DNA from: Bdellovibrionales bacterium
GTDB lineage: Bacteria; Bdellovibrionota; Bdellovibrionia; Bdellovibrionales; UBA1609
DNA: 64,000 bases
NCBI GenBank assembly: GCA_965219095.1
Contig: CBDCMT010000001.1
Span: forward strand, 704,001 to 768,000
Direction: 5' to 3'
The notes beneath the pieces are model-generated. The model ran no database searches. It saw only the letters and a program-made list of their open reading frames with translations, and was not told the DNA's origin. Positions 13,195 to 38,985 of this stretch are shown piece after piece. The position numbers were made by a program, and so were the translations under genes. Each line of letters begins with the position of its first letter. Position 1 is the first letter of the stretch.

Positions 13195-13622
13195 TTCAAC
13201 AGCAAAGGCAGATCAGATTTTAAGTAATTATAACCACTTACAGAAAATGAAAGAATCTATCCCTAAAGTTATTAGTTCAACTGATCATTTCGAATCTCAT
13301 TCTATAGAAGAATTCAAAAGAAAATTTAAACCAGGAACTCAAGTTTTTATCAAGTCTTTAAATCACATAGGGATTGTGCAAAGTATGGTCAATAAAAAAG
13401 GAGAACTTGAAGTTCTTTTCAGTCGTTAAGGTTTTCAGTACCTTTAGATGGAACTCAAAATGACACCCCCTCCTATGATAAAATAAGTTCTTTTCAAAAA
13501 AGGAACTTTGTAGAAAGTTCTGTTACTGCAAACAATGTGTTAGATGTGAGAGGCTTATCTGTAGAAAATGCTACTGAAATGTTAGAGAAAAAAATTGATG
13601 AAGCCCTTTTAAAAGAAATGGA
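13195..13622 (+). pseudogene. mutS2: MutS2 C-terminal remnant (KOW and start of Smr domain), cut by IS66
   Basis: FKPGTQVFIKSLNHIGIV, then after a frameshift NVLDVRGLSVENATEMLEKKIDEALL, ending at the IS66 end. Confidence 0.7.
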
Positions 13623-14870
13623 GTAACTGCTCACCTACATTGTTCAGTTATCCCTAACTTTAGAGCTGTTTTAAGATAAAAGTCTTGCTCTTACAGATTT
13701 TCTTTTAAATACTTTTTTCAAATGACAATAAATAAGACCTCCATCAGAAATGAGATTGAAAATATAAGAAGTGACTTTGATAAGCTTGCAAAGAAAGGTT
13801 CTGTGCCTACTGAGATTTCTGTGATTGTTGAATCTCTCTTTAAGGTTGTGAACATTCTGATTGTTGTGCTTTTAGAAAAACAGGTTCGAAAAAATTCCAG
13901 CAACAGCGGTCTTCCTCCTTCGCAAGATTTTAATCGTCAAGGGAATCGTAATAAGAAGGCTAGGGAGAGTCAAAAAAAGGGCTCTAGGCTTATCAGTAAA
14001 GATACAAAACAGCGAGGAGACTGTCTTTTCCTCAGAGTGTTCTCAGTGTGGGATGTGTTTAAAGACAGCAGAGGTAAAAAGCCTTGAAAAGCGTAAAAAG
14101 ATTGATATTTTTTATGAAATTCAGACCCATACTGTAACTTCTGAAGTTAAGGATTGTCCCTCATGTGGAGCTAGAAATAAAGGTCAATTCCCTAAAGGTA
14201 TGAGTGGTCCTCTTCAGTATGGTGTAGGCATTAGAGCTTCCATCATCAATTTCATTATAGTTCAGATGCTGTCTTTTAGAGCGTGTTGGGGAACATTACA
14301 TGGGGCTTATAGGTCGAATGATTTCTCCTGCAGTTATGTTGAGATACATTGCTGAATTAGGAGAGTTTCTTAAAAGTTGGGAAGAGCAGATGAAAGAAAA
14401 GATACTTGAATCAGAGGTCATTCATGTTGATGAGACCTCTATGAGGGTTAAGGGTAAAAACTACTGGATTCATACTTATAGTTCAGGAGAATTAGTCTTG
14501 CAGTTTCTCCACCTTTCAGGTGGAAGGGAAGCCATAAAAGATATTGGTCTCTTGGATAGATATGGAGGAGTGCTTGTGCATGATTGTTGGAGTCCTTACT
14601 TTTGTTATGATAAGATAACTCATGCTTTGTGTGTGGCTCACCTTTTGAGAGAGCTTAAATTTATAGAAGAAAGCAATGGATTCAAATGGGCTACAAATCT
14701 CAAAAAACTTCTTAAAGAGACTGTGGAGTTAGTTCATAAAAAAGAGTCAAGAGTTCTGACTCAAAAAGAGTACGAAACTCTTCAGAGAAGGTATAGGAGT
14801 ATTCTTACAAAAGGCTTAAAAGAGCTTCCAGAATTTCCTAAGAAAAATGGCAAGAAAGGACGAATAAAAG
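13623..14870 (+). mobile_element. IS66-family element, frameshifted and truncated
   Basis: End GTAACTGCTCACC; NSSNSGLPPS, CPSCG, IHVDET, LVHDCW, HALCVAHLLREL spread over three ORFs. Confidence 0.9.
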
Positions 14871-14902
14871 TGTAATAGACGTTATATGATCTGACAGTTA
14901 CC

Positions 14903-15258
14903 CTTTATGCGATCATCAAACTTTGGAGGTTTTCCAGGACGAGGATCATCTTCAAGAGCTTTTTTCAGCCCAGAATTCTCATAGTTTTTTTGGATGTTGA
15001 AAACAGTTCTAGGAGTTATCTCTAAGTAATCTGCTGTCTCTATGGCAGTTAAATTTTTGTTCCTTAAGTTTAGAACATTGGCTCGATATATGGCTCTTGG
15101 ATTTTTAGACTTCTTTATAATTTTAAGAATTTCTCTCTTATCTTTTGGCTTTAATAAATTTAACATATGAGTATTAAAACATAATAAAAAAAAATTAAAT
15201 AAAATGACCTGGATTAAAGGCTTGAAAATTGTGAAAAAAATTACTGGTCAGAACACTA
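14903..15258 (-). mobile_element. IS630-family left end with HTH fragment, inserted at TA in a recombinase gene
   Basis: ORF 14882..15166 (ADYLEITPRTV...LEDDPRPGKPPKF); end TAGTGTTCTGACCAG abuts the start of recombinase homology. Confidence 0.75.
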
Positions 15259-16067
15259 GAAGTAAAAATCAGAGTGCCCAGGACATTTTAATTGAAGAGT
15301 TAGGCAACCTTAGTGAAAAGAAATCTCAGGTAGAAGAAGAGATCAAAAAGCTCAAAAGGGAAAAGTCTCAATTCAAAGACAACATCATTTCAGCAGAGAA
15401 TATCTTTTCAGCACTCAAGGTTGTAAATAAGACTCTGCCCAAAATCACTCCCAGACAGCAAAAAGAGCTTCTCTCAGAGATCATCAAGAAGGTTGTGGTC
15501 TATAAACATGGCTTAGGCGTGGAGTATTTTGGGGCCAAAAAGTCTAAAATAGGAAATTGGGTTCAAGCGGTCAAAAATCCGCACAGTGTTTGTGTTGGTC
15601 GAGAAACCAGTAAATTGTGCGAGTTTCCCTATCTGTTTGATTTTCTTAGTCTTTTTCCAATTCCATACAGAGCAGAAAACCATAATTTCAGCGAGCTTTA
15701 TAAAAAACATCAATTATCCCTAAAACAAATAGCGGAAAAAACAGGAGTTAGCAAAAGCACTGTTTTGAAAAAACTTAAGAAAGAAAATGTAAGCAGAAGA
15801 GCACAAGAAGATGCCCAGACAAACCCTAAGAATTACCGTTCTCCTAATCCACCTTTTGGTTTTAGAGTTATTGAAGGGAGACTAGTGCAAAATAGAGCAG
15901 AAATTCACATTTGCAGGAAAATTATCCACATGAAAAATGATGGCCTATCTTTTAGTGCTATCAGTACCCAGCTAACAAAAGAAGGCATTAAAAACAGGAA
16001 AAAAACAACCTACTGGTGTCACAAGCATTTAAAAAGAATTTATAATTACTGGAAAGATAAACTATAA
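15256..16067 (+). pseudogene. 3' remnant of a second serine recombinase gene reading through attP into an HTH plus recombinase DNA-binding extension
   Basis: 15256-15601 is a slightly diverged direct repeat of 48570-48915; the frame continues into LSLKQIAEKTGVSKSTV (HTH) and PPFGFRVIEGRLVQN...GLSFSAISTQL...W. Confidence 0.85.
15580..15621. other. attP-like site of the serine recombinase (dyad centred on CG 15600-15601)
   Basis: CGCACAgtgtttgtGTTggTCGAgaAACcagtaaatTGTGCG; the dyad centre coincides with the end of homology to the tRNA junction. Confidence 0.8.
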
Positions 16068-16089
16068 TCAAAAACAAGGGGGTAAGACT

Positions 16090-16272
16090 ATGTTTTCTAT
16101 ATTTTCCATTCCAAAAATCGTAGGAGCTATTGTAAGCTTCTTTCTGATTTGTTCTTTAGTGGGGAAACCTGAAATTCCTATGAAGATGATTTTGAAGCTT
16201 CAAGCGGAGACTTTTAAAGTTATTGATCAGGATTGGGGGAATCCTGCTGTGTTTAATACTATAGATCATTAA
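16090..16272 (+). CDS. Small hypothetical membrane protein
   Basis: Ribosome binding site GGGGGT, one hydrophobic helix, follows the recombinase extension. Confidence 0.55.
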   Translation: MFSIFSIPKIVGAIVSFFLICSLVGKPEIPMKMILKLQAETFKVIDQDWGNPAVFNTIDH

Positions 16273-16284
16273 ATCTTCTCTCAA

Positions 16285-16683
16285 CTACTGTCTAGTGATT
16301 TTTTTAAAAATTTTTTGCCACCATGATATTCTTTTTATCTTTCTCTGTATGTCCGTTTCTTTTTCATGTCTATCTCTAAGCCTACCTATATATATTTCTT
16401 CTTCGGACCATTTTTTGCACCATTTAGTTTTACTCTCCAATATCATATAATGACTTTTACAAGGAAGTCTCCAGTTTCCTATTGATGGTAGTACACTTAT
16501 AGTATCTCCATCATATTCAACTCTCCACTCACTTCGACCTAATGGAAGGCTTACTTCAGACCCACAACCGCATGCACACATATGTTCAATGAGTCTATGT
16601 TTTGTAGATATATACAAATCTCCTTCATTCATTTTTTCAGGCATATTTTCTATCCATATAGTTCGCCAAATAGTAGTTTTCAT
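16285..16683 (-). CDS. DUF6527-like protein
   Basis: HMCACGCGSEVSLPL...PSIGNWRLPCKSHY motif. Confidence 0.85.
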   Translation of the reverse strand: MKTTIWRTIWIENMPEKMNEGDLYISTKHRLIEHMCACGCGSEVSLPLGRSEWRVEYDGDTISVLPSIGNWRLPCKSHYMILESKTKWCKKWSEEEIYIGRLRDRHEKETDIQRKIKRISWWQKIFKKITRQ

Positions 16684-16745
16684 TTTTTTCTCAATCAGTA
16701 TTAATTAATGTTTTATCTAATGCTTTTCCTTACAAATTGCTTTAA

Positions 16746-17963
16746 CTATTTACCCATCAGTATTGTTCCTGAAGGCGTGGCATAATTTAGTAAGTTGTGG
16801 TCGCTATCTCTATCACTTCTATAAATTCCTTTTTTTATCTTCCACTCTATAATGGCCAATGCTGCCCCTAACATATTTAGTTCCGCTGTTTGAATATTGC
16901 TTCTATAAATATCAATGATTGGTTGTTGATTATTTTGTACAATATTCGTTGAATTTCTTGAATTATTCACTTGATATTCTTTCTCTATTTTTACCATACC
17001 TACAAGTTGACTATCATTCTCTCCTTCCTTTTCAACTCCGATGCCAACACTCAAATGAAACACTCCTAATTCATTACATTTTCTTTGAATTTCTCTTCGG
17101 CTATTTAGATTATCTACGGCAATAAATACTGTGTTATAGTTTTTTAAAGTATCTAAATTTTTGTTATCAATTTTATTCTTGTGTGTGTGTAAACCCTTTG
17201 CTCTAATGTTTTTATAAGACTTCTCATGCCAATCGACCTTTGCCATGCCAAACTCGTTCTTATGTACGGCCCCTGCTAGTCTAAATGCACTATCAGTTTC
17301 TATAGTGTCATGATCATATAAATGTAACTCTTTGATATTTGTTTTTACAAGTACATCAACTAAATAAGACCCTGTACCTCCTACTCCTATAACTGCTACT
17401 ATTTCATCAGAAATTTTATCTTCTATTCCTTTTGTACCATTACGGTATTGGCTAGAATTAATATATACAAATCTTTCATCTGAATTATCTTTATTTACTT
17501 CTCCATTTTTTGATCGCTCTAAAACTCCTGGAGTTTTACTTTCAGCATGAAAGCTAACTTCCTTTATATATGTTGTTATCTGCTCATAATAATCGTTATA
17601 CGCTCTTTTCTGTCCATCTTGTTTTATCATTCTTGACCACTGCATATATACGACAATATCCTCTCCAAGGTTATGTCCATTGGTCCATTCTGCACAGCAA
17701 AGATCGTCTTTCATACTTTTTCCTTCAGAGTTATAGGGTATTTCTCCAGTCCACCATACAGTATGTTCTGTTGGTTGCTGTGTTTCCTGCCTTTGAGAGT
17801 CAATATTTAGACTGGTTACTATATCAGCATACTTAATTTCGTTTTGAGATAAATAAGGAACATTCTTTATAATTAAATAGCCACCTCTTATTTCTATATT
17901 ATACTTTTCACTTATTAACTTAGAGAGATCTTTACTATGATTTATCAGTGAGTATGACATCAA
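16746..17963 (-). CDS. E2-like (DUF6791-type) plus ThiF/E1 adenylyltransferase fusion
   Basis: N-terminal GGYLIIKNVPY...HTVWWTGEIP; VAVIGVGGTGSY, LYDHD, FIAVD, QTAELNMLGAALA. Confidence 0.85.
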   Translation of the reverse strand: MMSYSLINHSKDLSKLISEKYNIEIRGGYLIIKNVPYLSQNEIKYADIVTSLNIDSQRQETQQPTEHTVWWTGEIPYNSEGKSMKDDLCCAEWTNGHNLGEDIVVYMQWSRMIKQDGQKRAYNDYYEQITTYIKEVSFHAESKTPGVLERSKNGEVNKDNSDERFVYINSSQYRNGTKGIEDKISDEIVAVIGVGGTGSYLVDVLVKTNIKELHLYDHDTIETDSAFRLAGAVHKNEFGMAKVDWHEKSYKNIRAKGLHTHKNKIDNKNLDTLKNYNTVFIAVDNLNSRREIQRKCNELGVFHLSVGIGVEKEGENDSQLVGMVKIEKEYQVNNSRNSTNIVQNNQQPIIDIYRSNIQTAELNMLGAALAIIEWKIKKGIYRSDRDSDHNLLNYATPSGTILMGK

Positions 17964-18192
17964 ATTTCATTTCATTCACAATTGGTGTTGTTTCTCCTTC
18001 CTTAAGAATTCCTTCCGGTCTATCTTTTGGCCCATCTTTCCATCTAACATCATATTCATAATCTGGCCCTTGTTTCCCATCAGGATAAGCACGATTTACT
18101 ACTTCAGCAAAACTTATTTTGTCATCTGATATTTTATATTCTCTACCCCTAATATAAATTAAAATTCCTGCTTCACTCATTTTGACCTCCAT
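17935..18192 (-). CDS. Ubiquitin-like (multiubiquitin-domain) protein
   Basis: IYIRGREY...ISFAEVV...GILKEGET...MKFDVILTDKS pattern; overlaps the E1 gene start. Confidence 0.8.
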   Translation of the reverse strand: MEVKMSEAGILIYIRGREYKISDDKISFAEVVNRAYPDGKQGPDYEYDVRWKDGPKDRPEGILKEGETTPIVNEMKFDVILTDKS

Positions 18193-18215
18193 TAAATTTA
18201 TAAATATTTATTAAA

Positions 18216-18742
18216 TTAATTTCCACCCTCTCCACCAACAACATTGCTTCTTCCATCTGACACTAGTTTAAAAGGCCTAAAAAAGTCAAGCAAGCTATTT
18301 TGTTCATAAACCTCTAAGATATCGCTTTCTGTAAGATTGAGATGAGTATATTTCTTGCCAAGCTCACTTAATAAAAAATCCACATTAAAAAAATCTTCAT
18401 TTTCTCTAACAAGCCTTGTTATTTCAGCTCTTAGATGAAATATCATAAGCTCACTATCACCCTCAAAGCCATAATCCTCAGAACCATCAGAAAGGGAATA
18501 AATTCCATAGTCACTCTTATCTTTCTCGTCCTTACTTTTAGGAGGGTTTGTGCCACCTTCTCCTCCAAGGATAATAGGCCCCTCACAAGGATTTCTTTAT
18601 CAATTGAAGGAAAACAATTACTTTCTACTTCTGAACCTTCATAGATTTTAATTTCTGCACTTTCATTTAGCTCATTATTTACAAAGCCCAAAGCAACTTG
18701 AGTGAAGATAAGAGTTAATGTTGCAAATAGTATTTTTTTCAT
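18216..18742 (-). pseudogene. Secreted protein with two GGEGG motifs, split by a single-base frameshift near 18597
   Basis: Adding one A (GATAAAAGAAAT) joins 18443..18742 to the frame of 18216..18446: signal peptide...CFPSIDKRNPCEGPIILGGEGGTN...NVVGGEGGN*. Confidence 0.7.
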
Positions 18743-18834
18743 TTTAATTCTCCTTTGTTATTTTTTGGTTGTGATAAAGTATCTGCTGTTATTGTGACAA
18801 ATGTTGGCTCTCCATCTAAATCCTCTTCCTTATA
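18739..18834 (-). pseudogene. C-terminal remnant of a paralog of regulator 20677..21525
   Basis: YKEEDLDGEPTFVTITADTLSQPKNNKGELK* aligns with YSEEDENGEHSFFILGSDTLTQPEISTGEEQ*; same ATGA overlap with the downstream gene. Confidence 0.7.
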
Positions 18835-18908
18835 ACCTGAAATCTGTTAATTTTGGTACTAGGTTTTTATTCGGCCCTCGTAATGCTTCGCATTAGTCGG
18901 AGGGGATT

Positions 18909-19484
18909 TTACAACTTAAAGCTGTGTGGGATTTCTTGAGTCACATTAAAAGCTTTATAAAGGCTCTTTTGCTTACCGGATAACTCTCCTAATCTTGTTT
19001 GTCCTGTGGCCAATTTATAGAACTTTAATTTGTCTAAAATTTTATAGACCTCTGTTTTTGAAAATTTCTTGTACAGATTCTTTTCTTTCATCACATTGTT
19101 TATGTGAGAGATTAAAATTAAAGCTATAAAGTTAATAAATAAACTTCCTCTCATGGTTTGTAGCGAATGAGTCCTCGCTCGCTTTTCATTTATATCATGC
19201 TTGAAAGACAAAAAAATCTTTTCAATGCTATCTTTGTTTCTATACAACTCTAAGATCTCATCTTTTGAAAGCTTTTGATCGCAATCGGTAAGTAAAATCA
19301 ACACACCCATTTTTCGCATCTGCTTTTTAATATAATCCAAATCTCTCGAAATAAAAAAACCCCCCTTTTTCTTGACAACTGTAAAGCGCTTCTTGGCACT
19401 CTTTAAGGTTTCTGCTATGCACTCATCGCACTCTTTCTTTGTCCTAAATTTCTTCTTAGAAAATCTTCGCTCAAAACAATCCAA
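18909..19484 (-). pseudogene. IS1634-family transposase C-terminal fragment
   Basis: YRNKDSIEKIFLSFK...FINFIALIL; homologous to the C-terminus of 52539..54191. Confidence 0.85.
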
Positions 19485-19500
19485 CTTCTCTATCTTAGGA

Positions 19501-19603
19501 AACTGAAAACCTAAACGGAAGCACTATATAATGAATACGCTTAGATTTTCCGGTCGATTCTCTAGAGAAAAAACCCTGAAAACCTAAACGGAAGCACTAT
19601 ATA
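19501..19603. mobile_element. IS630-derived MITE plus an adjacent extra end
   Basis: CTGAAAACCTAAACGGAAGCACTATA occurs twice; unit matches 1220-1293. Confidence 0.75.
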
Positions 19604-19775
19604 CCATGAATCACCCTGAATCCTAACACCTAAGGATAATAAAGTGTTCAGAGCTGAAAGGGATTCTCTTCAATTTTGTTCAATTCTGAAAGCTTTTTTT
19701 ATAGACTAAAATAAGGTTTTTCACGCTGAAAGAGATTTCTGTTTATTTTCTTCTATCATGACAACCCTTATTAAA

Positions 19776-20354
19776 TCATTTTTTTCTAAACTTAATATGA
19801 GGTTTTAGAATAAATTTTAGCTGTTCGATGTCTTGTTCAATCTTTTTTTTATGCCCATTAGAGCCATAGATATTTTTTAAATTGTTAGCGACCACTTCTG
19901 CCCCACGGGTATCAACATAACTTTCTGACCATGTCTCTTTAATTTCTATTATTTCATTATATTCTATCAAAGCTTTCTTAATAGTGTTTTCTATGTCTCT
20001 TAGGAGTTCAAATGCTTGATCTTCTAAAAAAATTTGAACACTTTTAATGCTAGAAGAAAGAGATTCCAAATCTTTTTTATAGAAATCCATTTTTCTAATT
20101 ACTTTTTTCCTCATCCTTTCATATTCTTTTAAACCCTCATCTTCCTGATTCGTACTTTCAAGGGGAGGGAAGAATGAATTATAAACTTCTTTGATTCTTA
20201 ATGCACAATAAAGAGCCTCAGAGGCAACTTCTGCATTCTTCTTTAATAAGGCTTCTTTTTTCCAGTTATTAAATGAATAATATCCAAGCCAGACTAAACC
20301 TAAGCCTCCTATTCCTGAAAAAAGCAAACCTATTGCAGAAAGAAAATCACACAT
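19776..20354 (-). CDS. Hypothetical protein, N-terminal membrane anchor and helical domain
   Basis: 192-aa ORF; transmembrane segment followed by NNWKKE. Confidence 0.7.
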   Translation of the reverse strand: MCDFLSAIGLLFSGIGGLGLVWLGYYSFNNWKKEALLKKNAEVASEALYCALRIKEVYNSFFPPLESTNQEDEGLKEYERMRKKVIRKMDFYKKDLESLSSSIKSVQIFLEDQAFELLRDIENTIKKALIEYNEIIEIKETWSESYVDTRGAEVVANNLKNIYGSNGHKKKIEQDIEQLKFILKPHIKFRKK

Positions 20355-20377
20355 TTGAATATTTGTGAATATAATAT

Positions 20378-20680
20378 TTAGTTTCCACCAACAGTCCCCA
20401 TATCAACTCTCATACTAGAAACCTGAAACTCGTTTCCTAATGAGAATTTAGAAAGGTTTTGTTCTTCTAATGCAATTTCCTCAACCAAAATAGGGTTATA
20501 CCCTAAATCAAGGAGTCTTTCTTTGTTTTCCTCAACACTTAAATCCTTATTATTTTCAACTTCAAAGCTAATTTCTAAAGCTTCATAAAAAAGGTCAGAT
20601 ATTTCTTCAAATTCAAAAGAGGTGTATCCAAAAGACTGAAAGCTAAATAACAAAATTAAATAAAAAATCATATTCTTCAT
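20378..20680 (-). CDS. Small secreted acidic protein ending MGTVGGN
   Basis: Signal peptide (SFQSFG); ATGA overlap with the upstream regulator. Confidence 0.75.
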   Translation of the reverse strand: MKNMIFYLILLFSFQSFGYTSFEFEEISDLFYEALEISFEVENNKDLSVEENKERLLDLGYNPILVEEIALEEQNLSKFSLGNEFQVSSMRVDMGTVGGN

Positions 20681-21525
20681 TGTTCTTCTCCTGTAGATAT
20701 TTCTGGTTGAGTAAGGGTATCTGAGCCTAAAATGAAAAAAGAGTGTTCTCCATTTTCATCTTCCTCAGAATAGAGTTTTGTTAGTTCATCAATGGCATTT
20801 TTCATAATTTCTTTCTGCCTCCTTCTTTTTTCAGAGCTTAACTTCCCACAAAGAGTTTTAAATTGATTAAGTCCTTTATCTACTTCTGTGGGTTTTAAAT
20901 AGTAAGCTAAGTCACTTATCATTTTCTTTGTAATGGTATTGTCAATATACTGATTTTGATGTTGCCCTGTAATCCTTCCAGTTTCATCTTTTACTAAAAT
21001 CTTATCTTTTAACATTTTATCTAAAACCTCTAAAGCAAAAGAGTCTAAAGTGTTGGCAATTTCACTTTTTGTAGTTCCACCCTTATTATAAGCTAAAACA
21101 GTAATAATTCGCCCTTCTCTTGTCTGCAAATAGCTTTCCTTAATGGGACTGATTATGGCTTCAAAGTTTACAGTCTCAAGCCCTTCAAAGGATTTTCTTA
21201 AAAATTTCCCCAGCTGTCCTTTTGTGTTTTGAAGAATGTCTTTGATTGTATTTCCGCGATAAACGCCAAAAACAATTTTTCTAACAACCTCTGCTGAAAT
21301 CTTCTTCTTTGTCACCCCGGTTAATAGGTAGTGAATAGTTGTAGAGCTTAGGCTATTTCTAGCACAAAAGCCATTAGCTGAAATGTTAGGATTCTTATCT
21401 AAATAGCTTTGTAAGACTTCTTTTAGTTCAGAGATCATTTCTGAGTAAATAATATCTTTTTTATCTCTCGTAGAGGCATAAGGGAGGCGTTTTTCTACTT
21501 TTCCAAAATTTGTATTCTCAATCAT
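20677..21525 (-). CDS. HTH regulator, TIGR02147/DUF4423-like
   Basis: YLDKNPNISANGFCARNSLSSTTIHYLLTG HTH-like region and a second wHTH-like region; start at 21525 has a ribosome binding site (ORF track starts at 21597). Confidence 0.6.
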   Translation of the reverse strand: MIENTNFGKVEKRLPYASTRDKKDIIYSEMISELKEVLQSYLDKNPNISANGFCARNSLSSTTIHYLLTGVTKKKISAEVVRKIVFGVYRGNTIKDILQNTKGQLGKFLRKSFEGLETVNFEAIISPIKESYLQTREGRIITVLAYNKGGTTKSEIANTLDSFALEVLDKMLKDKILVKDETGRITGQHQNQYIDNTITKKMISDLAYYLKPTEVDKGLNQFKTLCGKLSSEKRRRQKEIMKNAIDELTKLYSEEDENGEHSFFILGSDTLTQPEISTGEEQ

Positions 21526-21591
21526 AAAAGTTCCTTTTGAGATTTGATATAACACTAGAAAAAAGAAATCAAGCCTCTTGAAAGAATATTG

Positions 21592-21654
21592 TTCCAACTA
21601 GAAAACTTTTTACTTACTTTTTTCCATTTGGAAAGTGTGTTATTCCACATGGAA
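21592..21654. promoter_or_regulatory. Repeated palindromic operators TTCCA-N2-TGGAA in a divergent promoter region
   Basis: TTCCAACTAGAA (21592), TTCCATTTGGAA (21622), TTCCACATGGAA (21643). Confidence 0.55.
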
Positions 21655-21817
21655 AGGTTTTTTTAAAAACTATGCATCATTTTTTCTAAGTGGGAAACTA
21701 TTTAGAATCATTAAGTTTTTTCTCTTGATTTTTTCCTTTGAAGAAGCTTAAAACATTCAAACTATAGAAAAACAAAGACTAGATCTCTTCTTCATTTATC
21801 AATCAAAAGGAGAAAAT

Positions 21818-22321
21818 ATGAATAAAAAAGAACTAGAAGTCTTAAGAAGAAAGTCTAAAAAATGGTCACCACAAGAATGGGAAAGCTATCTTAAAGCCAT
21901 AGAGGTAGAGCGTTCTGAGAGTTTGATTTCCCCTAAGAAGCATGAAAAATTACAGAAGAAGGATAACCTCTTTCTCTGGAGTGATGATGTCTCTGAAGAG
22001 AAGTCTGACGAATTTAAAGTGCTTGCAAAAAAAGCTTTAAACCAGCTTACATTTAAGCAAAGAACTGTTATTAAAATGATCTTTTGGGACGGACTCTCTG
22101 AAAAGGAGATTTCAAAAAAATTATGCCTCTCCACTTCTTCCGTGAGAGACCGAAAAGCTCAAGGATTACAAAAGGTTAGAGCCTATTTTAAGGGCTTCAT
22201 ACCGACCGTGTCCCCCTATATAGGGGCTAAAAAAACTTCGAACGCCCTCAAACCCATTTCTCAAGCCAGTTTATCTCATGCTATTTTTGCGTCTAAAAAG
22301 GGGAGACATCATGTTGCTTGA
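21818..22321 (+). CDS. Sigma-70 region 4-like HTH protein
   Basis: ALNQLTFKQRTVIKMIFWDGLSEKEISKKLCLSTSSVRDRKAQGLQK. Confidence 0.8.
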   Translation: MNKKELEVLRRKSKKWSPQEWESYLKAIEVERSESLISPKKHEKLQKKDNLFLWSDDVSEEKSDEFKVLAKKALNQLTFKQRTVIKMIFWDGLSEKEISKKLCLSTSSVRDRKAQGLQKVRAYFKGFIPTVSPYIGAKKTSNALKPISQASLSHAIFASKKGRHHVA

Positions 22322-22532
22322 AGAAAAACTCCACAAAGCTTTATGGAACCTAAACCCAGAGGAAAAAGTTATTATCCATTGTCGATTCTGGGAGCACATG
22401 AGTATTTTAGAAATTTCACATTTTCTAGGTTACTCATGGGATGAAACCTATCAACTACTCAATGAAACTCTAAAAGAGCTAAGAGAAGAGCTTGCAGATT
22501 ATCAAGATTATTCACTAAAGAACGCTTCGTAG
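22311..22532 (+). CDS. Second small sigma-70 region 4-like protein
   Basis: ALWNLNPEEKVIIHCRFWEHMSILEISHFLG; ribosome binding site GGGAG before the ATG at 22311. Confidence 0.7.
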   Translation: MLLEEKLHKALWNLNPEEKVIIHCRFWEHMSILEISHFLGYSWDETYQLLNETLKELREELADYQDYSLKNAS

Positions 22533-22552
22533 AAAAACAAAAGGAGGAGTTT

Positions 22553-22996
22553 ATGAATTCAAATATATTAAAAATAGAACCTAAATTTTCAGAAAAGCCA
22601 GAGGCAAAAACTTTTGAAATCTTTAAAGGAGAAAGAGATAACTATGGGAAAGTCAGAAGAAAGCGAACACTTGGCCAAGCTAGAATTTTTGAAGGAGCAA
22701 AGACTTACCATGTGTTTATCAAAACTCTTTTAAGGGCAAAATTTTATCTTTTACCTGAAAACAGGAATCCTCAAAAATATGAGTATGTCATTTTAACAAG
22801 AGAGCCAAGTCAGACTCCTGATAAAAAGTACTACTGGAATAGTGTGGGAGAAGGAAAGATTCTCATGGGACAAAATCAAGGTCTTATGAAGCTTGAATGG
22901 GATTTTTTTGGAAGTGACGATATTTATATGAAACTCGATCCTATGGAAGAAAAAGCACCAGAGAGTATTGACTTAAAGGGGGCTAGTAATGAATAA
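22553..22996 (+). CDS. Hypothetical ICE protein
   Basis: Strong ribosome binding site AGGAGG; in operon with the pilin gene. Confidence 0.7.
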   Translation: MNSNILKIEPKFSEKPEAKTFEIFKGERDNYGKVRRKRTLGQARIFEGAKTYHVFIKTLLRAKFYLLPENRNPQKYEYVILTREPSQTPDKKYYWNSVGEGKILMGQNQGLMKLEWDFFGSDDIYMKLDPMEEKAPESIDLKGASNE

Positions 22997-23288
22997 GGCT
23001 TATCGGTTTAAAAAAATTGTAGGCTTTCTATGTCTTACAGGAGCTTTTTATTTGCTCCTGCAAGAGCCAGTATTTGCAAGCCTTGAGAGTTCACTGGTCA
23101 GCATCAAATCAAGGCTTACAGGGGTCATCTTGCCCCTTGTTTCTGTGATTGGGCTTGTAGTAGCAACCTTTAGCTTTATTACAGGAAATCCTAATGCAAA
23201 ACAACATATTATCTATGCTCTCGTGGGGTCGGCGATTGGGTTTGGAGCTCAGTCAATCATTGATTTTATAAGTTTTACTATTTACTAA
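22989..23288 (+). CDS. VirB2/TrbC-like pilin
   Basis: Long signal peptide (PVFA) plus two hydrophobic helices; upstream of virB3/virB4. Confidence 0.7.
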   Translation: MNKAYRFKKIVGFLCLTGAFYLLLQEPVFASLESSLVSIKSRLTGVILPLVSVIGLVVATFSFITGNPNAKQHIIYALVGSAIGFGAQSIIDFISFTIY

Positions 23289-24131
23289 ATCTTTCAAAAA
23301 TAAATTATATATATTTAGACCAATGCCTACTTCAATACTGACAAGGCTTACCCAAGTCCTACTTTCTATTTCAGGCATGAAACTCTGAAAAATAGTAATA
23401 ATCAATATAAAAATCAAGAAAAAATAAACCTGAGGTTTAATCAGCTTTAATTCTTTTAAAGAATTGTGCCATAAATGCAAAAACAAAGAACTGGATGAGA
23501 TTAAAATAAATACGAAAAGTATCCACAAAAGTTTTTCTATAAACTGAAATAAGCTCATCTTATTTTCCCTTTCTATCTTTCCACCCATTCTATTTTCAAC
23601 CGTGTTCTTATTTTTATTAAGTTTTCCTAGATTTTCCATTACATTCTTCTTTGACTCTCCTTGTGATCTTACAATAGCCATTACTTTCGGAGAAATAGAA
23701 TGGCTATTGTACTGATATGAAAAATCAGAAGGTAATTGATAGAAAACGGTAATGTCTTTATTGATTTCCTTTGAATTTTCTCTTATTAAAAGGTGAGAAG
23801 ATTTTTTATAGTTAAAGATTTCATTAAATATTTTCAAAGATTTTTTATCTTTTGGCACAAGATAAGCATAATTGTATTCTCCAGAAAAACTAATTTCTTC
23901 TTTTTTCAAAAGAGATCTAAAATTTTTATTTTTCTTATGAAGATCAAAGCCCATAAAATTTTCTTCTACAAAATCCATAATTGGCTGTTTAACAGATTCA
24001 CTTTTTATAAAATATTCAGTTTGCAATACAAAAGGTAAAATTATTAGTAATAACCCTATGATGTTACTAATCTGAATATTATTTGATTTTATTTTCTTTG
24101 CTTTCACATTTGTAGGTATATCGTAAATCAT
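23253..24131 (-). CDS. Hypothetical membrane protein (cargo, antisense within the transfer operon)
   Basis: One N-terminal and three C-terminal transmembrane segments; very AT-rich. Confidence 0.65.
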   Translation of the reverse strand: MIYDIPTNVKAKKIKSNNIQISNIIGLLLIILPFVLQTEYFIKSESVKQPIMDFVEENFMGFDLHKKNKNFRSLLKKEEISFSGEYNYAYLVPKDKKSLKIFNEIFNYKKSSHLLIRENSKEINKDITVFYQLPSDFSYQYNSHSISPKVMAIVRSQGESKKNVMENLGKLNKNKNTVENRMGGKIERENKMSLFQFIEKLLWILFVFILISSSSLFLHLWHNSLKELKLIKPQVYFFLIFILIITIFQSFMPEIESRTWVSLVSIEVGIGLNIYNLFLKDLVNSKTYKIND

Positions 24132-24180
24132 AAGAAAAACAAGCTATTTTTATTTAATTATTTTAGATATAGGAGGAAAG

Positions 24181-24528
24181 ATGAGCTTACTCACATCAAA
24201 AACCCCTCGACAACTTGAGGGAAAACTAAAACTACTAGGCTTTGAACTTATAGACTTACTTTTAATTTTTCTATACCTCTCAATCAGCAACCTATTATTC
24301 GGACAAACCACGCTTAAATTTCCAATTGTTTATATAGGCTCAATAACCCTTGCCATAACTCTCTACTTTACAAAAAAAGGCAAACCAGAAAACTATCTCC
24401 AAGATAAACTCCAAAGCCTTACTAACCCAAGTACATACTCCGCCAATCTTCCTGACACCAAATACAAACCTTATTTTAAAAGGGAGAGTTATGAACAAAA
24501 ACCCAACACCTCTAAAGAACTTCTCTGA
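24181..24528 (+). CDS. VirB3-like protein
   Basis: KLKLLGFELIDL, two transmembrane segments, GKPENYL; overlaps virB4. Confidence 0.65.
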   Translation: MSLLTSKTPRQLEGKLKLLGFELIDLLLIFLYLSISNLLFGQTTLKFPIVYIGSITLAITLYFTKKGKPENYLQDKLQSLTNPSTYSANLPDTKYKPYFKRESYEQKPNTSKELL

Positions 24529-26944
24529 ATTTACTACCGAACACTCTCTCGCCGAACAACTTCCCTTTTGGGATTTCTTTGATAACTCCGTTGCTTTATC
24601 TGACGGCACTCTTGTTCAAGGACTAAAGCTAGAAGGCTTAGCAATTGAATCTAAAACTCATGAAAAAATAAACTCTCTTACTCTAGCTTTGCGTTCTTTT
24701 TTAAACGGACTTATTGACAATACAGAAATTAGCTTCTTCATAAAAAGCCACTCTGATCACAGCACAATCTTAGAAACTCACGAAAAACTAAAATCACACA
24801 ATAAAAACATCAATGAAATATCAAAAGACAGGCTAAATCTTTTAAAAAAGGAATGTCTTAATGAAAACCTTTTAAGAAAAGACATTTACGTCTTTATCTA
24901 CAACAGACCAGAAAATATAGCTAACAAAAAATCACTCTTTGACTTTTTCAAAACTCGCAAATCTTTCCAAAGCATTACACAAAAAAAACACGAACGAAGA
25001 TTAAAAAACACTCAAACTCTCACCACTTCTATTGCCGACACACTTTCTACTTCTGGAATAAAAAGCAAAACCTTAAGTAAAAAAGAAATTAAAAACCTTA
25101 TTTATGAATTTTTAAACCCAGAGAGGTCAAAGCACCAACCAACCCCTAAAGAAAATACCTCCCACAAAGAGCAAGTCTTTAAACCAAAAGAGTTAGAAAT
25201 TATTCCTGAACTTTCTTGCACCTCTCCTCGTGAAGAGCTTATATTTTCTGATTTTGTTACTGGACACAAAGACCTTTTCTATGATGAACACTACCACAGA
25301 ATTTTAACTCTAAAAACTCTACCTGAATACACTCAAAGCTCACTCATTGAAAGGCTTATAAATTTTCCTATGGCATTTTTTCTATTCATTCATATTAAAG
25401 TGCCCAATCAATCAAAAGAGCTATCCTTACTACAAATGAAAAGACGAATGGCACATTCTATGAGTTTATCTCGAAACGAAAGAGTTAGTGATATTGAAAG
25501 TGAATCTCAGGCCGACTCTATAGAGGAATTAATCAGAGACGTCATAGAAACTGGGCAGAAGATTTTCTTTTTTCAAATGGCAATTAAATTGCAGGATAAA
25601 AGTCCAGATAACTTAGAAGCAAAATCAAAATCCATAATGAATGTTTTTCGCCAGCTAAATGGAGCCGAAGGATTTGAGGAGACTTTGGCAAGCTTTAAAG
25701 TTTTTAAAACCCTTATTCCTTTTGGCAATTTAACTATGGCAAGGCCTAAAAAAATAAAAGCAAATAACCTTGCTGATTTTTTACCAGTTTATCAAAGCTA
25801 CACAGGAGTAGATCAAAAACCAATTTGTCTCTTTAGAAACAGAGAAAAAGCCCTTGTTAAATATGATCCATTTCATTCTAAACTTTCTAACTACAATTCT
25901 TTGGTTACAGGCTCCAGTGGATCGGGGAAGAGCTTTTTAAACAATCTTATTTTGCTTCAATCTATCAAGGAAAACTCCATGAATTTTATTATTGATATTG
26001 GCGGAAGCTACAGAAAAATTTGCAAACTAATAGGAGGTCAGTATGTTGATGTTGCCCCATCATCTAATAACTCAGAAGAAAATCCCAATTCACTCTCGTT
26101 TAATCCGTTTGCATTACAAGGAAACGCAAAGGCTCCAAATTCAGGAAAGATTAAATTCTTATTGGCACTTATGGAGAACTTATTAACGGATGTTGAGGGA
26201 GAGAAACTTCCCAAATTAGAACGTGCTTTATTAGAGGAAAAAATTGATGAACTTTATAAGTTCAATAAAACTCCAAGACTCTCGGACTTTAAAAATCTAC
26301 TTAAAAATTCAAATGATAAAAAACTTCAAAACTTTGCTAAAATGCTCTATCCTTGGACAAGTTCAACTCCTTACGGAAAACTTCTAGACACTCAAGGAAA
26401 CTTTAAAACTGAAAATGATTTTGTAGTTTTTGATCTTAAAGGATTATCAAATTACCCAGACCTTCAAAGTGTTATGATTTTAATTATCACTGATTTTATT
26501 TTACAAAGAGTAGAATCCAACGACACTAAAACAACTTTAAAAAAGAAACGCATTTTAATGGATGAGTGTTGGGAGCTACTTAAGGGAAAGGCTAGTTCAA
26601 ATTTTATGGAGTATTGTGTGCGAACTCTTAGAAAAACTGGATCTGGCATAACATTCATCACTCAAGGGATAGAGGAAATTGCAAATCATGAAATAGGCTC
26701 TGCAATCTTAAACAACACTGCCACGAAATTTATCCTCCAACAAAAAGGAGACCTAAAACCTGTTGAGAAGATATTAAAGCTTAATGAGAGGGAACTCTCC
26801 CTTGTAGCAAGCCTTCAAAGTAAAAAAAGAGAGTTTTCAGAGGCTTTTATGATTCAGGGAGAAGAAAAAACTGTCATAAAGCTCTATCCCTCGCAAAAAG
26901 AGTATTGGATAGCCACCAGTGATGCTGAAGATAAATTAAAATAA
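24491..26944 (+). CDS. virB4: VirB4/TraC-family conjugation ATPase
   Basis: Walker A GSSGSGKS, IIDIGGSY, Walker B ILMDECW, RTLRKTG...ITQ. Confidence 0.92.
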   Translation: MNKNPTPLKNFSEFTTEHSLAEQLPFWDFFDNSVALSDGTLVQGLKLEGLAIESKTHEKINSLTLALRSFLNGLIDNTEISFFIKSHSDHSTILETHEKLKSHNKNINEISKDRLNLLKKECLNENLLRKDIYVFIYNRPENIANKKSLFDFFKTRKSFQSITQKKHERRLKNTQTLTTSIADTLSTSGIKSKTLSKKEIKNLIYEFLNPERSKHQPTPKENTSHKEQVFKPKELEIIPELSCTSPREELIFSDFVTGHKDLFYDEHYHRILTLKTLPEYTQSSLIERLINFPMAFFLFIHIKVPNQSKELSLLQMKRRMAHSMSLSRNERVSDIESESQADSIEELIRDVIETGQKIFFFQMAIKLQDKSPDNLEAKSKSIMNVFRQLNGAEGFEETLASFKVFKTLIPFGNLTMARPKKIKANNLADFLPVYQSYTGVDQKPICLFRNREKALVKYDPFHSKLSNYNSLVTGSSGSGKSFLNNLILLQSIKENSMNFIIDIGGSYRKICKLIGGQYVDVAPSSNNSEENPNSLSFNPFALQGNAKAPNSGKIKFLLALMENLLTDVEGEKLPKLERALLEEKIDELYKFNKTPRLSDFKNLLKNSNDKKLQNFAKMLYPWTSSTPYGKLLDTQGNFKTENDFVVFDLKGLSNYPDLQSVMILIITDFILQRVESNDTKTTLKKKRILMDECWELLKGKASSNFMEYCVRTLRKTGSGITFITQGIEEIANHEIGSAILNNTATKFILQQKGDLKPVEKILKLNERELSLVASLQSKKREFSEAFMIQGEEKTVIKLYPSQKEYWIATSDAEDKLK

Positions 26945-26988
26945 ATGTAGAACCGAATGCTTGATTTTAAACTTCAAGATTTTAAAAT

Positions 26989-27612
26989 TTAATCATTATC
27001 ACAAATACTTGAAGAGTACTTTTCTTGTACCTCCTGATTTTTAGGGAAAACAACCAAAATAGCATTGCCTTTGCTTTTCTTAATCTGAACAGTAATATTT
27101 TGTCCTTCTTTATCTTTTAATATTAAAGAATCCCCTCTTTTCAAATGATTATAAGAGCTTGGCACTCTTAAGATTGCTTTGTTACCTTTACTTTTCAATG
27201 CAGAAAACATCTCACATTTATCATTTAAAGGTTGATCGTAAATAATAGCTTTTATAATTGCTTTACCCATACCCCAACTACTAAAACCAATTCCTTCAGT
27301 ATCGACATTTTCAATAATCAAAGCGTCTGCACCACATTTGCAAGCATGAGGTTTTGCTTGGCTGATAGCTTCATTGACATTTCTACCGTGGAATACAGTC
27401 GTTCCTGTTCTTGAGTCTATTAGACATGCTACTTTATATTTTTTTTTAATTTCTTTAGCACTTGAATAAACATCTAAATTACAAGTAGGGGGCTTTTCAG
27501 TGGTATTAATACCTGAAATTCTTGTAGTACCAACACTAGCACAAGCATTAAGAAAGATTAAAGGTAGAATGATCAAAAATTTCATGCTTTTCATGCTTTT
27601 CATGCTTTTCAT
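26989..27612 (-). CDS. Putative lipoprotein
   Basis: Lipobox LNAC; KPHACKCGADALII. Confidence 0.7.
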   Translation of the reverse strand: MKSMKSMKSMKFLIILPLIFLNACASVGTTRISGINTTEKPPTCNLDVYSSAKEIKKKYKVACLIDSRTGTTVFHGRNVNEAISQAKPHACKCGADALIIENVDTEGIGFSSWGMGKAIIKAIIYDQPLNDKCEMFSALKSKGNKAILRVPSSYNHLKRGDSLILKDKEGQNITVQIKKSKGNAILVVFPKNQEVQEKYSSSICDND

Positions 27613-27616
27613 GCTT
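27581..27616. repeat. 9-bp tandem repeat (TTCATGCTT)x4 at the lipoprotein start
   Basis: Gives MKS-MKS-MKS-MKF with four in-frame ATGs. Confidence 0.95.
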
Positions 27617-28223
27617 ACGTTAAGATTAGCATTTTATAGCCCAATCTTAATTGGCAAAAGGTCTAGTTTTCTATGGATAAATATAAAAATTTTTCTCTTT
27701 AGAATATGATAGTCGAAATCAAAAACGGTCATTAGGAGCTAGACTTGATGGGACTGGTGTGTCTCTAGAATAGGACGCATCTCCATAGCTGGTGAAGGGG
27801 AAAATCAAGAGAAATTCATAAAATTAAAACTAAAAGCTAGCCTTACGGTGTAATAGTTCTATTTAAGTTCTCAAATTATTTTGTCGATAAATAAAATATG
27901 TGAAACCGAAGCAAATGAGGAACAGCTTCTAATGAATAAATTTCTTTTATACAATATCTTTCTTTTAAGCCTTTTTCTCTTTAGTTGTAACGATTCTAAA
28001 AAGCCATCAGTTACAACTCCTCCATCTAGTTCAAATTGCAAAACGGGTTACCATTTAGAAAATAATAAATGTGTTCCTAATACTAGAAATTGTGTTCCTA
28101 ACGGAGAAGGCTCTCAAACTTGGGAAAACGATGCTTGGGGAGCTTGCACATTTTCAAGTTGCAACACAAATTATCATGAAGAAGGTGGTTTCTGTGTTTC
28201 TAACACAAGAAGTTGTGACATTA

Positions 28224-29631
28224 TACCAATTACAGAAATTAATTCGACATTTTTATGTTCAAATTTAAAATTTTAAAATTGACTTAAGGAAAAGTTTCAA
28301 TTAGGAGGCTTTAAAAAAGTTTTTTTTGAAGGGAGGTTGAGTTTTCATAAGATATGTTTATTTTATGTATATCTATTGTTGTGTGAATCGATTGATGGGT
28401 TAAAATAAGTGTAAAAAAGTGAGGTTAAGATGTAAAATGAAAAAAATCAGTTACGCAATTTAATTTATAGGTTCAAATTAATTTACAAGCTTGATTCATC
28501 TTGTTGTTTTGCCCAAGATCGAGTGCATAATTTTTTAATCCTGCCCTCCTGATCGCAAAAAGTATTCCAGGCCTCACAACAAGTATTCAGTATATGGTCA
28601 TAGTTTTTAAAACATGCATTCGATAATTTGATCCTTCGTAATTGTTGCCAGACTTGTTCCATGGGATTTAATTCTGGACTATAAGGAGGTAAAGGCATCA
28701 GGGATAAATTCTTAGGAACTATCAAAGTCTCTGTGGTATGCCAACTGGCTCTGTCCATTAAAACAATTCCATGATAGTTTTCTTGAATATTTTTAGATAT
28801 CTCATCTAAGTGAATTTGCATCATCCCTGAATTACATTCCGGTAAAATCCAAGCACAGCCTTTATCTTTATCCGGACAAACTGCTCCAAAAATATAAGTG
28901 GATAAAAATTGTCTTTGTCTCACAACTCTAGGTCGTGTGCCTTTTCTTGCCCAAATCCTGCTTAAAGAACCTTGCTGGCCTATTCTGCATTCATCCTGCC
29001 ACCAAATCTCTATTTTATGAGTCTGAATCTTTTCCTTTATTTTCTCCACCTCTTCTGGAAAATGTTCCTTAAACTGTTCCATAGCTTCTTGTGAAGTTTT
29101 AGGATGAAGAGAACGACCACTGATCCATACAATATTAAGACGGTCTAAAAGAGCATAAACCCCAGAAAGAGAATAGCAACAGTCAAATTCATCTGCTAAA
29201 AGTTCCTGTATTCCCTTTGCTCCTATGCTTCCTCCTTCTCTTGTGTCTTGAATTTCATCTAACTTGATTTTGAAGTTCTCTTCTTCTGTCACTGGCAAAC
29301 GGGGTTTACGTCCTCTGCCTTTTCGATCTATCAATCCCTCGTAATCAAAGTCTACAAAAGACTGTAACCAGGATTTGATACTGTGACGGTGATACAAAAC
29401 CATACCTGCTGTTTCTTGAATCGATTTTCCTTTTTGCATATGGTGCAAAGCTTGAAGTTTTATCTTGATGTTGGCACTTCTTTCCACTTTGTAAGTAGCT
29501 AGAAAATCATACCCTTGAATCTGTGTAACTAAATCTTTTTTCGACATGACTCTAAAAATGTAGCAGAGTTTGATTAAAAAGCCAGGACGCTATGCGTTAA
29601 AAGAATGTCGAATTAATTTTTGGAAATGGTA
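28224..29631 (-). mobile_element. IS630-family element, intact
   Basis: Inverted repeats TACCAATTACAGAAATTAATTCGACATT / TACCATTTCCAAAAATTAATTCGACATT; TTA duplicated on both sides. Confidence 0.92.
28483..29547 (-). CDS. IS630 family transposase
   Basis: WWQDECRIG, LMDRASWH, LPPYSPELNPMEQVW. Confidence 0.95.
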   Translation of the reverse strand: MSKKDLVTQIQGYDFLATYKVERSANIKIKLQALHHMQKGKSIQETAGMVLYHRHSIKSWLQSFVDFDYEGLIDRKGRGRKPRLPVTEEENFKIKLDEIQDTREGGSIGAKGIQELLADEFDCCYSLSGVYALLDRLNIVWISGRSLHPKTSQEAMEQFKEHFPEEVEKIKEKIQTHKIEIWWQDECRIGQQGSLSRIWARKGTRPRVVRQRQFLSTYIFGAVCPDKDKGCAWILPECNSGMMQIHLDEISKNIQENYHGIVLMDRASWHTTETLIVPKNLSLMPLPPYSPELNPMEQVWQQLRRIKLSNACFKNYDHILNTCCEAWNTFCDQEGRIKKLCTRSWAKQQDESSL

Positions 29632-30039
29632 TTAGTAATGGTGAAGGATCTCAAACTTGGGCAAACGGTTCTTGGGGTAATTGTGTGCTTTCAAGATGTC
29701 ATTCAGGTTACCAAGAACACACAGGTGCTTGCATTTTAAGTTGTTCTGATGATCAACATATTGAAAATGAAGAATGTGTTCTTAATACTCGTAATTGCAG
29801 TATTCTTAACGGTCATGGGACTCAAACTTGGAGCAGTAATTCTTGGGGTACTTGTACTTTTTCAAGCTGTAATTCAGGTTACTATGAAGAAGGTGGTTCC
29901 TGTATTTTGGACACAGGAACTACCCGTCACATCTGCTTTGCGTTTAACTCAGATAGGACGGAAATTACTGATTACTTTGGTTTGGATAATAATGGCAATG
30001 TATGTCCCAGAGATGTTATTATACCTGTAGGGATTTTTG

Positions 30040-32270: not shown

Positions 32271-32652
32271 ATTTTAAATGGAGGCAATCCTCTCAGAATT
32301 AACAATAATGCTTTTACAGGAAATGATGGTTTAACCACCGTTTGTATAGAGCAGCTAAGCTACAATTTCTACAATATCCGGATAGTAAGCAACCCTCCTC
32401 TTTTAGGCGTAACTCTAGTTTATGATGACGATGGGGATTGCACTAACAATTCACCTTGATATGAAATAGTGAACTTCATTTGTTGGAAAGTGAAGAAATT
32501 AGAGAAATTCAAGCTTGGATAGGGTGGTCAGATAACCGACTTACAGTATTGTTAGAGCAATTTACTGTCCTTTTCTCTAGATTAAGATAGAATTTATTTC
32601 CATTAATGAAACTCCTATAAAGATTATAGCTAATCATGATCGATTAGTTATT

Positions 32653-33396: not shown

Positions 33397-33404
33397 GGGA
33401 AAAT

Positions 33405-34859: not shown

Positions 34860-34912
34860 GCAATTTTTTTGAATATTGAAAGATTTTTTATAATTTCAAT
34901 GGGAAAGCATTT

Positions 34913-35614: not shown

Positions 35615-35619
35615 GAGAG

Positions 35620-38067: not shown

Positions 38068-38076
38068 TTAAAAATT

Positions 38077-38961: not shown

Positions 38962-38985
38962 AAAATCAAAAATAAGGGAGTCGTT

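Follow-up and report, generated by a model that had tools for sequence, protein, structure and literature searches.

Attachment sites within recombinase genes

In fuselloviruses of the SSV1 type, the gene for the tyrosine integrase contains its own attP, the attachment site carried by the element, and in Tn4451 a promoter for TnpX, a large resolvase, is formed when the element becomes a circular intermediate. Serine integrases are prized as enzymes that carry out attP x attB recombination alone, the reverse reaction requiring a separate factor. Here we describe an integrative conjugative element (ICE) located in a 64,000-nucleotide stretch of a Bdellovibrionales genome (contig CBDCMT010000001.1, positions 704,001 to 768,000; the whole stretch is referred to as the window), which probably stands integrated at a tRNA-Pro gene with its attP inside the reading frame of its own large serine recombinase, such that the excised circle would encode a longer enzyme than the integrated element does.

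The locus resembles SSV1 in that a recombinase gene spans attP and integration at a tRNA gene alters the encoded recombinase, but the SSV1 gene is split into two non-functional parts, whereas the serine enzyme described here keeps its canonical domains and loses an accessory C-terminal module. The likeness to Tn4451 is that the joint of the circle controls expression of a large serine recombinase, although what is assembled at that joint is a promoter in Tn4451 and coding sequence here. In integration-dependent immunity, as described in the available text of PMC8092301 and of a corynephage preprint (bioRxiv 10.64898/2026.10.29.762952), the free and integrated forms of a protein differ in activity. 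The mycobacteriophage systems are also similar, to the extent of that text, in that integration at a tRNA gene alters the C-terminus of a phage protein; there, however, the integrase is of the tyrosine type, it is the repressor that is cut and a degradation tag of 15-30 residues is lost, as opposed to the folded 155-residue recombinase module considered here. The filamentous phage phiRSM uses a serine recombinase for which attP and attB correspond to a tRNA gene's 3' end, oriented in reverse (PMC3816273, available part), but the enzyme is small and of the resolvase type, its sites share a 13-nt core and that part of the paper reports no frame crossing attP. In a synthetic fusion of a serine integrase with a recombination directionality factor, the accessory protein on the integrase C-terminus changes which sites are recombined (PMC5737554, available part); that fusion was engineered and its partner is a known directionality factor, whereas the present arrangement is natural and reversible by recombination, and the partner is a DNA-binding-like module.

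No large serine recombinase with an open reading frame (ORF) spanning attP was found in the full-text literature, subscription journals lying outside the search, which agrees with the original prediction, a note made earlier by a model from the DNA sequence of the window, whose maker knew of no such precedent. Nor does one appear in the available text of a survey of large recombinases (PMC10083194, which makes no mention of tRNA there), an ocean-element preprint or PMC12884075. An attP within a recombinase gene is already known with tyrosine recombinases, and the serine-integrase version appears, as far as the literature covered goes, to be new.

The integrase gene and its junctions

The integrase is encoded by an ORF at 47174-48931 (585 residues; 558 counted from the ATG at 47255), and the 558-residue form is present in the protein database (P0001). 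Pfam matches to Resolvase (PF00239, 1.5e-31, residues 46-197 of the 585-residue ORF), Recombinase (PF07508, 3.5e-18) and Zn_ribbon_recom (PF13408, 2.4e-7) assign the protein by sequence to the large serine recombinases, with resolvase catalytic, recombinase and zinc ribbon domains. The nearest NCBIfam families are CcrB and XisF, each below its cutoff, and residues 424-520 have only weak below-cutoff matches, to the coiled-coil-rich families KIF9 and Spot_14. All feature coordinates are collected in Table 1.

The last 346 bp of the integrase gene recur without gaps at the other end of the element (15256-15601 against 48570-48915), with 97.7% identity and 8 mismatches. TGGTCG forms the last shared bases of both copies, after which the left copy goes on as AGAAACCAGTAAATTGTGCG and the right copy as antisense tRNA-Pro(tgg). 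At the right junction, the crossover CG corresponds to nucleotides 5-6 as counted back from the tRNA's 3' end, the terminal ACCA of that tRNA comes from the element, and the protein terminates in RRDRI and a stop codon within the antisense tRNA. At the left copy, the C at 15600 and the G at 15601 are the exact centre of an imperfect 42-bp dyad (15580-15621) with 13 of 21 complementary positions per arm; the score falls to 4-8 when the centre is moved by 1-6 bases, and a score of 13 is attained at 87 of 63,940 positions in the window. The original prediction had described the repeat with its few substitutions, the sudden end of homology at TGGTCG, the dyad centred on the left-hand CG and the tRNA-Pro junction with its element-supplied ACCA and RRDRI terminus, and each of these was recovered, the dyad being exact in its centre and imperfect in its symmetry.

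The att sites are short, with an imperfect dyad and without extended homology between attP and attB, as is typical of serine integrases; a search for arm-type repeats around attP gave only short matches of chance quality, and in at least eight related elements the left and right junctions share only 6-8 nt. Public sequence data, in the form of assembled contigs of three runs placed on 48300-49700, include one contig that bridges attR, the right-hand junction, along with tRNA-like loose ends from other organisms; such contigs cannot phase the single-nucleotide differences that lie 55-60 bp from the core across the junction.

The 155-residue extension

On the left side, the copy of the integrase 3' end continues for 155 further residues without a stop (ORF 15204-16067), and the crossover lies inside an ORF that would continue on the other side of it in the circular form. 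The first 20 residues of that ORF match ~25 other places in the genome, and the extension has no ATG before its residue 110.

In Pfam, the extension matches Recombinase (PF07508) at model positions 2-48 with 24 bits (cutoff 21.1), along with many helix-turn-helix (HTH) families including HTH_7-like ones, all below cutoff. An AlphaFold2 model built from 28 homologues has a mean predicted local distance difference test score of 85.2 and consists of ~29 low-confidence residues, a three-helix HTH (30-61) and then a β-hairpin with three helices (88-151). The best Foldseek matches of this model in the PDB are complexes of large serine recombinases with DNA, namely SPbeta (9dxh), Bxb1 (9iu8) and A118 (4kis), with E-values of 0.008-0.1 and a probability near 1, the Bxb1 match having a root-mean-square deviation of 1.9 over 84 columns, and a profile of the 28 homologues searched against the PDB matches residues 170-244 of the SPbeta integrase recombinase domain (E 4.6e-7). 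Sequence and model together indicate an HTH and, after it, the initial portion of a recombinase domain of the large-serine-recombinase type, in agreement with the HTH and second recombinase-type domain proposed beforehand, and the module looks like a DNA-binding domain. A recent origin of the module by copying of the recombinase domain in this same integrase was rejected, BLASTP giving no significant similarity between the two.

Next after the module in the window comes a conserved ORF for a 60-residue membrane protein (16090-16272). In two relatives (G063:C17:11811-12575 and G056:C49:6494-6913), a gene for a small resolvase-type serine recombinase follows right after the module, without a counterpart in the window.

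Conservation of the frame in relatives

The extension was searched for at E <= 1e-5 in the family and, as a profile, at E <= 1e-8 in the order, and the integrase at E <= 1e-40 in the family. The extension is present in 30 of 109 family genomes and in 189 of the order's 384 genomes, and the integrase in 36 of the 109; 23 family genomes have both, 7 the extension only and 13 the integrase only. Of 17 integrase loci taken from other genomes, all but one (L057) run into a gene for a tRNA or transfer-messenger RNA (tmRNA) at its 3' end and in antisense, the 16 targets being Met and tmRNA (three each), Val, Ala, Asp and Pro (two each), Ser and Leu.

An integrase and an extension were counted as a pair when they share a contig and an orientation and the extension precedes the integrase, at a spacing of 15-64 kb in full-size elements and ~1 kb in a decayed element of G199, and the codon phase of TGG (the antisense of CCA) was compared in the two genes. 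It is equal in 14 of 14 pairs, which come from five genera and have six tRNA species and tmRNA as targets, and the frame that the original prediction had seen to stay open at this locus is kept across the reconstructed attP of relatives. Three phases occur, in which a slash marks the codon boundary. Ten pairs read T/GGN: the present element (tRNA-Pro) and Element 3 of the same genome (tRNA-Met), both T/GGT; G061:C4 and G147 (tRNA-Met), G045:C12 (tRNA-Val), G131 and G199 (tRNA-Pro) and G106:C14 (tmRNA, where TGG is repeated and the register slightly ambiguous), all with GGT; and G032:C1 and G133 (tRNA-Asp), with GGC. Three read xTG/GTN, namely Element 2 of the same genome (TTG/GTG, tRNA-Met), the right-hand element of G063:C17 (TTG/GTT, tRNA-Met) and the decayed 2.8-kb element of G199 (TTG/GTG, tRNA-Ala), and one reads TGG/TGG (G047:C1, tmRNA). 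The linker from the core to the first conserved motif varies between 12 and 28 codons across the pairs.

The locus G056:C8 was counted separately; it consists of an integrase gene, 4.4 kb and a ~45-bp copy of the P arm followed by the extension, with no tRNA, and its phase agrees. G156 was omitted, its integrase and extension lying ~3 Mb apart. The sole out-of-phase junction is in G063:C17, where a different, complete integrase gene stands right before the extension and stops at a TGA on the core; when this integrase is aligned with that of the tRNA end, 40% of 374 aligned residues are identical, and the site is the junction of two different elements. The left arm is unlike the P arm, as in an ordinary attL, in at least eight elements (G061, G047, G032, G106, G147, G133, G131 and G199), and in G061 and G147 it is the terminator hairpin of the tRNA gene. 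P-type left arms are found in the three elements of the present genome (G000), in G045, in G056:C8 and in G063.

Long genes and stand-alone modules

Two genomes of the order carry the long gene itself. In G286:C32, an uninterrupted frame of 744 residues (740 from the first Met) crosses ATT GGT GGA in frame and contains Resolvase, Recombinase and zinc ribbon domains, followed by an HTH (606-650) and another Recombinase stretch. In G357:C126, the C-terminal 650 residues of such a gene product are encoded, the start of the contig cutting off the remainder. These contigs may represent either unintegrated elements or tandem junctions.

Many stand-alone calls of the module begin MV(D/E)(R/Q)P, their ATG combining one flank base with the TG that belongs to the CCA end. 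For the T/GGN and TGG/TGG classes, the CCA-overlapping xTG codon is out of frame, and no ATG, GTG or TTG occurs from the upstream stop to the HTH in G032, G045, G133, G131 and G199. The original prediction did not expect the extension to have a conserved start of its own; this held in so far as no start is conserved and five of the 14 modules are startless, and is less certain for the xTG class, which could self-start.

A 180-residue call (P0128) runs from a sense-strand tRNA through a P'-like stretch into the module, and the element appears to be inserted in reverse, with the module end beside the tRNA body. Two complete genomes (L075, G120:C1:2814559-2815056; L076, G151:C1:2969020-2969568) have a module and no integrase at E <= 1e-30. 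These modules follow a core of the tmRNA type (GGTGGA) or tRNA-Pro type (TGGTCGC), and could be left ends stranded by the loss of their elements; alternatively, a divergent recombinase might have been overlooked.

The left junction and its sibling elements

Serine integrases swap strands at two bases, which yields no long repeat. Left of 15601 lie a P arm and 346 bp of integrase gene and not the downstream flank of the tRNA (the B arm), so the left junction is P-CG-P', an attP-like site, and not attL, which the original prediction had not noticed. The 5' boundary of the repeat (15256-15262), a point missed in the original prediction, is the end of multi-copy insertion sequence (IS) DNA at 13609-15262, and from the sequence the left copy is taken to be the IS-truncated relic of a second, sibling integrase gene. 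It is 97.1% identical to C2:1839653-1839999 and 93.4% identical to C2:1826944-1827289. The repeat most likely stems from tandem accretion at an occupied tRNA gene: the sibling element would have stood in tandem on the tRNA-distal side and would then have been eroded by IS-mediated deletion. Left of the IS, only thioredoxin, DsbD and LysR-type genes and further IS were found, and no older element.

G000 contains three copies of the extension, each at the far end of a syntenic element of 24-33 kb, the opposite end of which is an integrase reading into a tRNA. All three elements have a direct repeat of the 3' end of their own integrase gene, ending 6-7 nt inside the tRNA and bordered on its 5' side by IS DNA, and in all three the integrase frame is stop-free into the extension. 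At the position of the relic, G063 has a complete heterologous integrase and G045 a decayed one, which would represent intact and decayed stages of tandem formation followed by erosion. The second element may have entered the occupied site either by homologous recombination between 97% identical siblings or by integrase acting on attP x attR.

The inferred central dinucleotide is CG here, GG in Element 2 and TG in Element 3 and G063. In serine integrases, a non-palindromic central dinucleotide sets the orientation; the CG here is palindromic, which, going by the general biochemistry of these enzymes, would abolish orientation control. A palindromic CG fits the head-to-head P-CG-P junction at C2:1839654.

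A single P arm has four copies in the genome, each different after the CG, where it continues as P', tRNA-Pro, unrelated DNA or the inverted P arm of a paralogue. The last of these lies at C2:1837917-1841306 (L003/L007), where two convergent integrase genes overlap by ~12 bp, one a 71% paralogue and the other a frameshifted copy (two pieces 96-98% identical at the protein level), with their P arms meeting head to head in the palindrome TTGGTCGACCAA, as would be expected if the palindromic CG permits recombination in the wrong orientation. At C2:1826943-1828685 (L004), the same CG of a 98% identical integrase copy is joined to non-tRNA DNA (GGGTAATGTG...), 54 bp of which resemble positions 38097-38150 of the window, inside the present element. 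The junction of this copy (C2:1826944) was considered as a fragment of tRNA-Pro(ggg) and rejected, only 2 further bases agreeing. No extension copy belonging to this integrase or to the two paralogues at C2:1837917-1841306 was found in G000.

Weighing of alternative explanations

We put the probability that an ICE is integrated at tRNA-Pro with attP inside the recombinase frame, so that the circle encodes ~708 residues and the integrated form 558, at about 0.78. The frame being open across attP, the circular form must encode the ~708-residue enzyme, and this part of the original prediction gains support from the 14 of 14 phases and the two long genes. Several observations weigh against this reading. 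The 14 pairs are related, ten of them with one shared phase, and hence are not independent, and the evidence consists of assembled contigs, a type of data outside which the circle junction, the transcript and the protein lie. Among the best 150 of 505 hits in a search of 1.84 billion representative proteins, a full-length fusion is absent; nearly all are stand-alone calls of 113-215 residues, and the longer ones consist of a C-terminal integrase fragment and the module (P0127, which is Element 2, and P0168). A word-based search returned no module proteins longer than 504 residues, which is weak evidence since the genome search of the order found two. To judge by sequence, modules of the xTG class may start alone at the CCA-overlapping codon when integrated, and five genomes (four of them single-contig) have a module and no integrase hit at E <= 1e-30. 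As for the tandem, the textbook attP x attB rule does not predict such accretion for serine integrases, and each of the three G000 relics is short (234-782 bp), which random deletion would not lead one to expect; they might reflect recombinational loss of longer repeats, or a site-specific origin.

Some of these points would suit a module that is an independent small gene, encoding a regulator or directionality factor, that sits beside attP and is in frame merely by descent. Stand-alone calls of 150-175 residues dominate, the xTG class has an ATG, GTG or TTG that overlaps with the CCA end, and the module, present in 189 genomes of the order, also occurs without an integrase hit, in five genomes at E <= 1e-30 and in 7 of the 30 family genomes with a module at E <= 1e-40. 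We nevertheless consider an independent gene unlikely, given that the phases agree in every pair despite three phases and linkers of 12-28 codons, that outside the xTG class the corresponding codon does not lie in frame and that five modules have no start codon at all when integrated; moreover, no Shine-Dalgarno-like GGAGG was seen by eye upstream of the modules of L010, L013 and G063, and fused long genes exist in G286 and G357. It is highly improbable that the repeat is an assembly artefact mixing reads from circular and integrated forms: the 782-bp repeat of Element 2 is 100% identical, as such mixing would have it, but the window copies differ at 8 positions, the left copy is attached to unique IS-flanked DNA, the layout is identical in three elements on two contigs and a contig from another sample bridges attR. 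The left junction could also have been made by the integrase itself from the attP of an incoming element and the attR of a resident sibling, perhaps enabled by the long form of the enzyme, in which case the repeat would be a regular product of the family. This would account for the P-type left arms in G000 (3/3), G045, G056:C8, G063, G286 and G357, for one P arm meeting four different partners exactly at the CG, including the head-to-head case, and for the shortness of all three relics. It is doubtful all the same, attP x attR not being a permitted pairing for the serine integrases that have been studied. The available text of PMC3783163 likewise says that other att pairings do not recombine. 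In addition, each of the three relics is bounded by an IS end, an indication of IS-mediated deletion, and homologous recombination can bring siblings into tandem when they share 1.9 kb at 97% identity.

Functional implications

With attP inside the integrase frame, the P arm would encode the last ~20 residues of the canonical enzyme and the P' arm a linker, the same frame then continuing into the 155-residue module. Integration would swap the module for a few antisense-tRNA codons and leave a 558-residue enzyme with every canonical domain, and after excision or transfer the long protein of 708 residues would be made. Loss of the module would presumably matter to the enzyme. In the role we favour as the most likely, the module would give extra contacts with DNA to the integrating form alone, although any specific role is a tentative assignment.

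A more far-reaching view, and a rather questionable one, is that recombination serves as an architecture switch, in which only the circle makes the long integrase and the module alters site choice. The module could then permit integration, including attP x attR at an occupied tRNA, and such a reaction by the long form would explain the frequent attP-like left junctions, while the short integrated form would be excision-competent or locked. The position of attP would in that case encode directionality, instead of or besides a separate directionality factor.

In the arrangement we prefer, the recombination reaction itself would strip a folded DNA-binding-like module from the enzyme, and this arrangement is conserved in a large tRNA/tmRNA-targeting clade across the order. 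Should the two forms differ in site choice, it would amount to a natural self-resetting device for directionality or copy control and, if true, to a new design principle for integrase tools. Annotation of such elements would give an integrase that lacks ~150 residues and would list the orphan module as a small gene of no relation to it. A further question posed by the attP-like left junctions is whether elements with serine integrases can, like tyrosine-integrase islands, stack where a site is already occupied.

The conjugative element and its genome

Table 1. Features of the element in the window and of its two siblings in G000 (window coordinates unless a contig is given).
Feature	Coordinates	Strand	Evidence or remark
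Integrative conjugative element, ~33.3 kb	15602..48915	+	Pfam on 32 ORFs; synteny with two more elements
Multi-copy IS DNA	13609..15262	.	IS66-family fragments, IS630-like HTH ORF; Pfam DDE_Tnp_IS66, HTH_29
Left ORF, 287 residues, integrated state	15204..16067	+	IS-derived start, integrase C-terminal fragment and extension
Left repeat copy with P arm, probably the 346-bp 3' end that is left of a 5'-truncated sibling integrase gene	15256..15601	+	97.7% to 48570-48915
Putative attP-like site (P arm - CG - P' arm)	15580..15621	.	13/21 dyad; homology to the tRNA junction stops here
155-residue extension	15600..16067	+	~29-residue linker from the P' arm, HTH 30-61, recombinase-domain-like module 88-151
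Large serine recombinase	47255..48931	+	558 residues integrated; last 5 codons and stop are antisense tRNA
Right repeat copy, intact integrase gene 3' end with P arm	48570..48915	+	Alignment to left copy
attR (P arm - CG - tRNA body)	48893..48936	.	Contig of a second sample spans 48848-48965 with zero differences
tRNA-Pro(tgg)	48910..48986	-	ARAGORN; sole gene with that anticodon in the genome
Element 2	C2:339303-370080		tRNA-Met (C2:339117); 782-bp own-integrase repeat, 100% identity
Element 3	C1:128729-152611		tRNA-Met (C1:152605); 234-bp own-integrase repeat, 97% identity

Between the att sites lie type IV secretion genes and the gene for a coupling protein, as befits an ICE. The secretion genes comprise TrbC/VirB2, TraG P-loop/TraC (VirB4-like), VirB8/TraE and TrbI, and the coupling protein is of the TrwB/TraG-D type. 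No relaxase family was found among the 32 element ORFs at E <= 0.001, 15 of which are without any match. The element also carries an inserted IS630.

The defence cargo is located in three places: a ThiF and DUF6791 protein with DUF6527 (16285-17963), an Eco57I-type methylase with a GIY-YIG/RAMA protein and a ResIII helicase (33405-38067), and a Shedu SduA_C protein (44523-45701). An ORF of 924 residues (29685-32459) consists of ~30 tandem 66-bp units with 60-93% identity between them, which encode 22-residue leucine-rich repeats of the BspA type.

The genome is 3.11 Mb in size on 2 contigs, has 34% G+C and contains hundreds of IS copies, a saturation that is compatible with a host-restricted or recently bottlenecked organism. 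IS-rich stretches of the window include 1042-3542, 8957-11580, 13609-15262 (for which the genome has up to 83 matches), 28070-29642 and 51094-59310, and near-identical copies of the ISL3 at 1516-3040 number well over 100.

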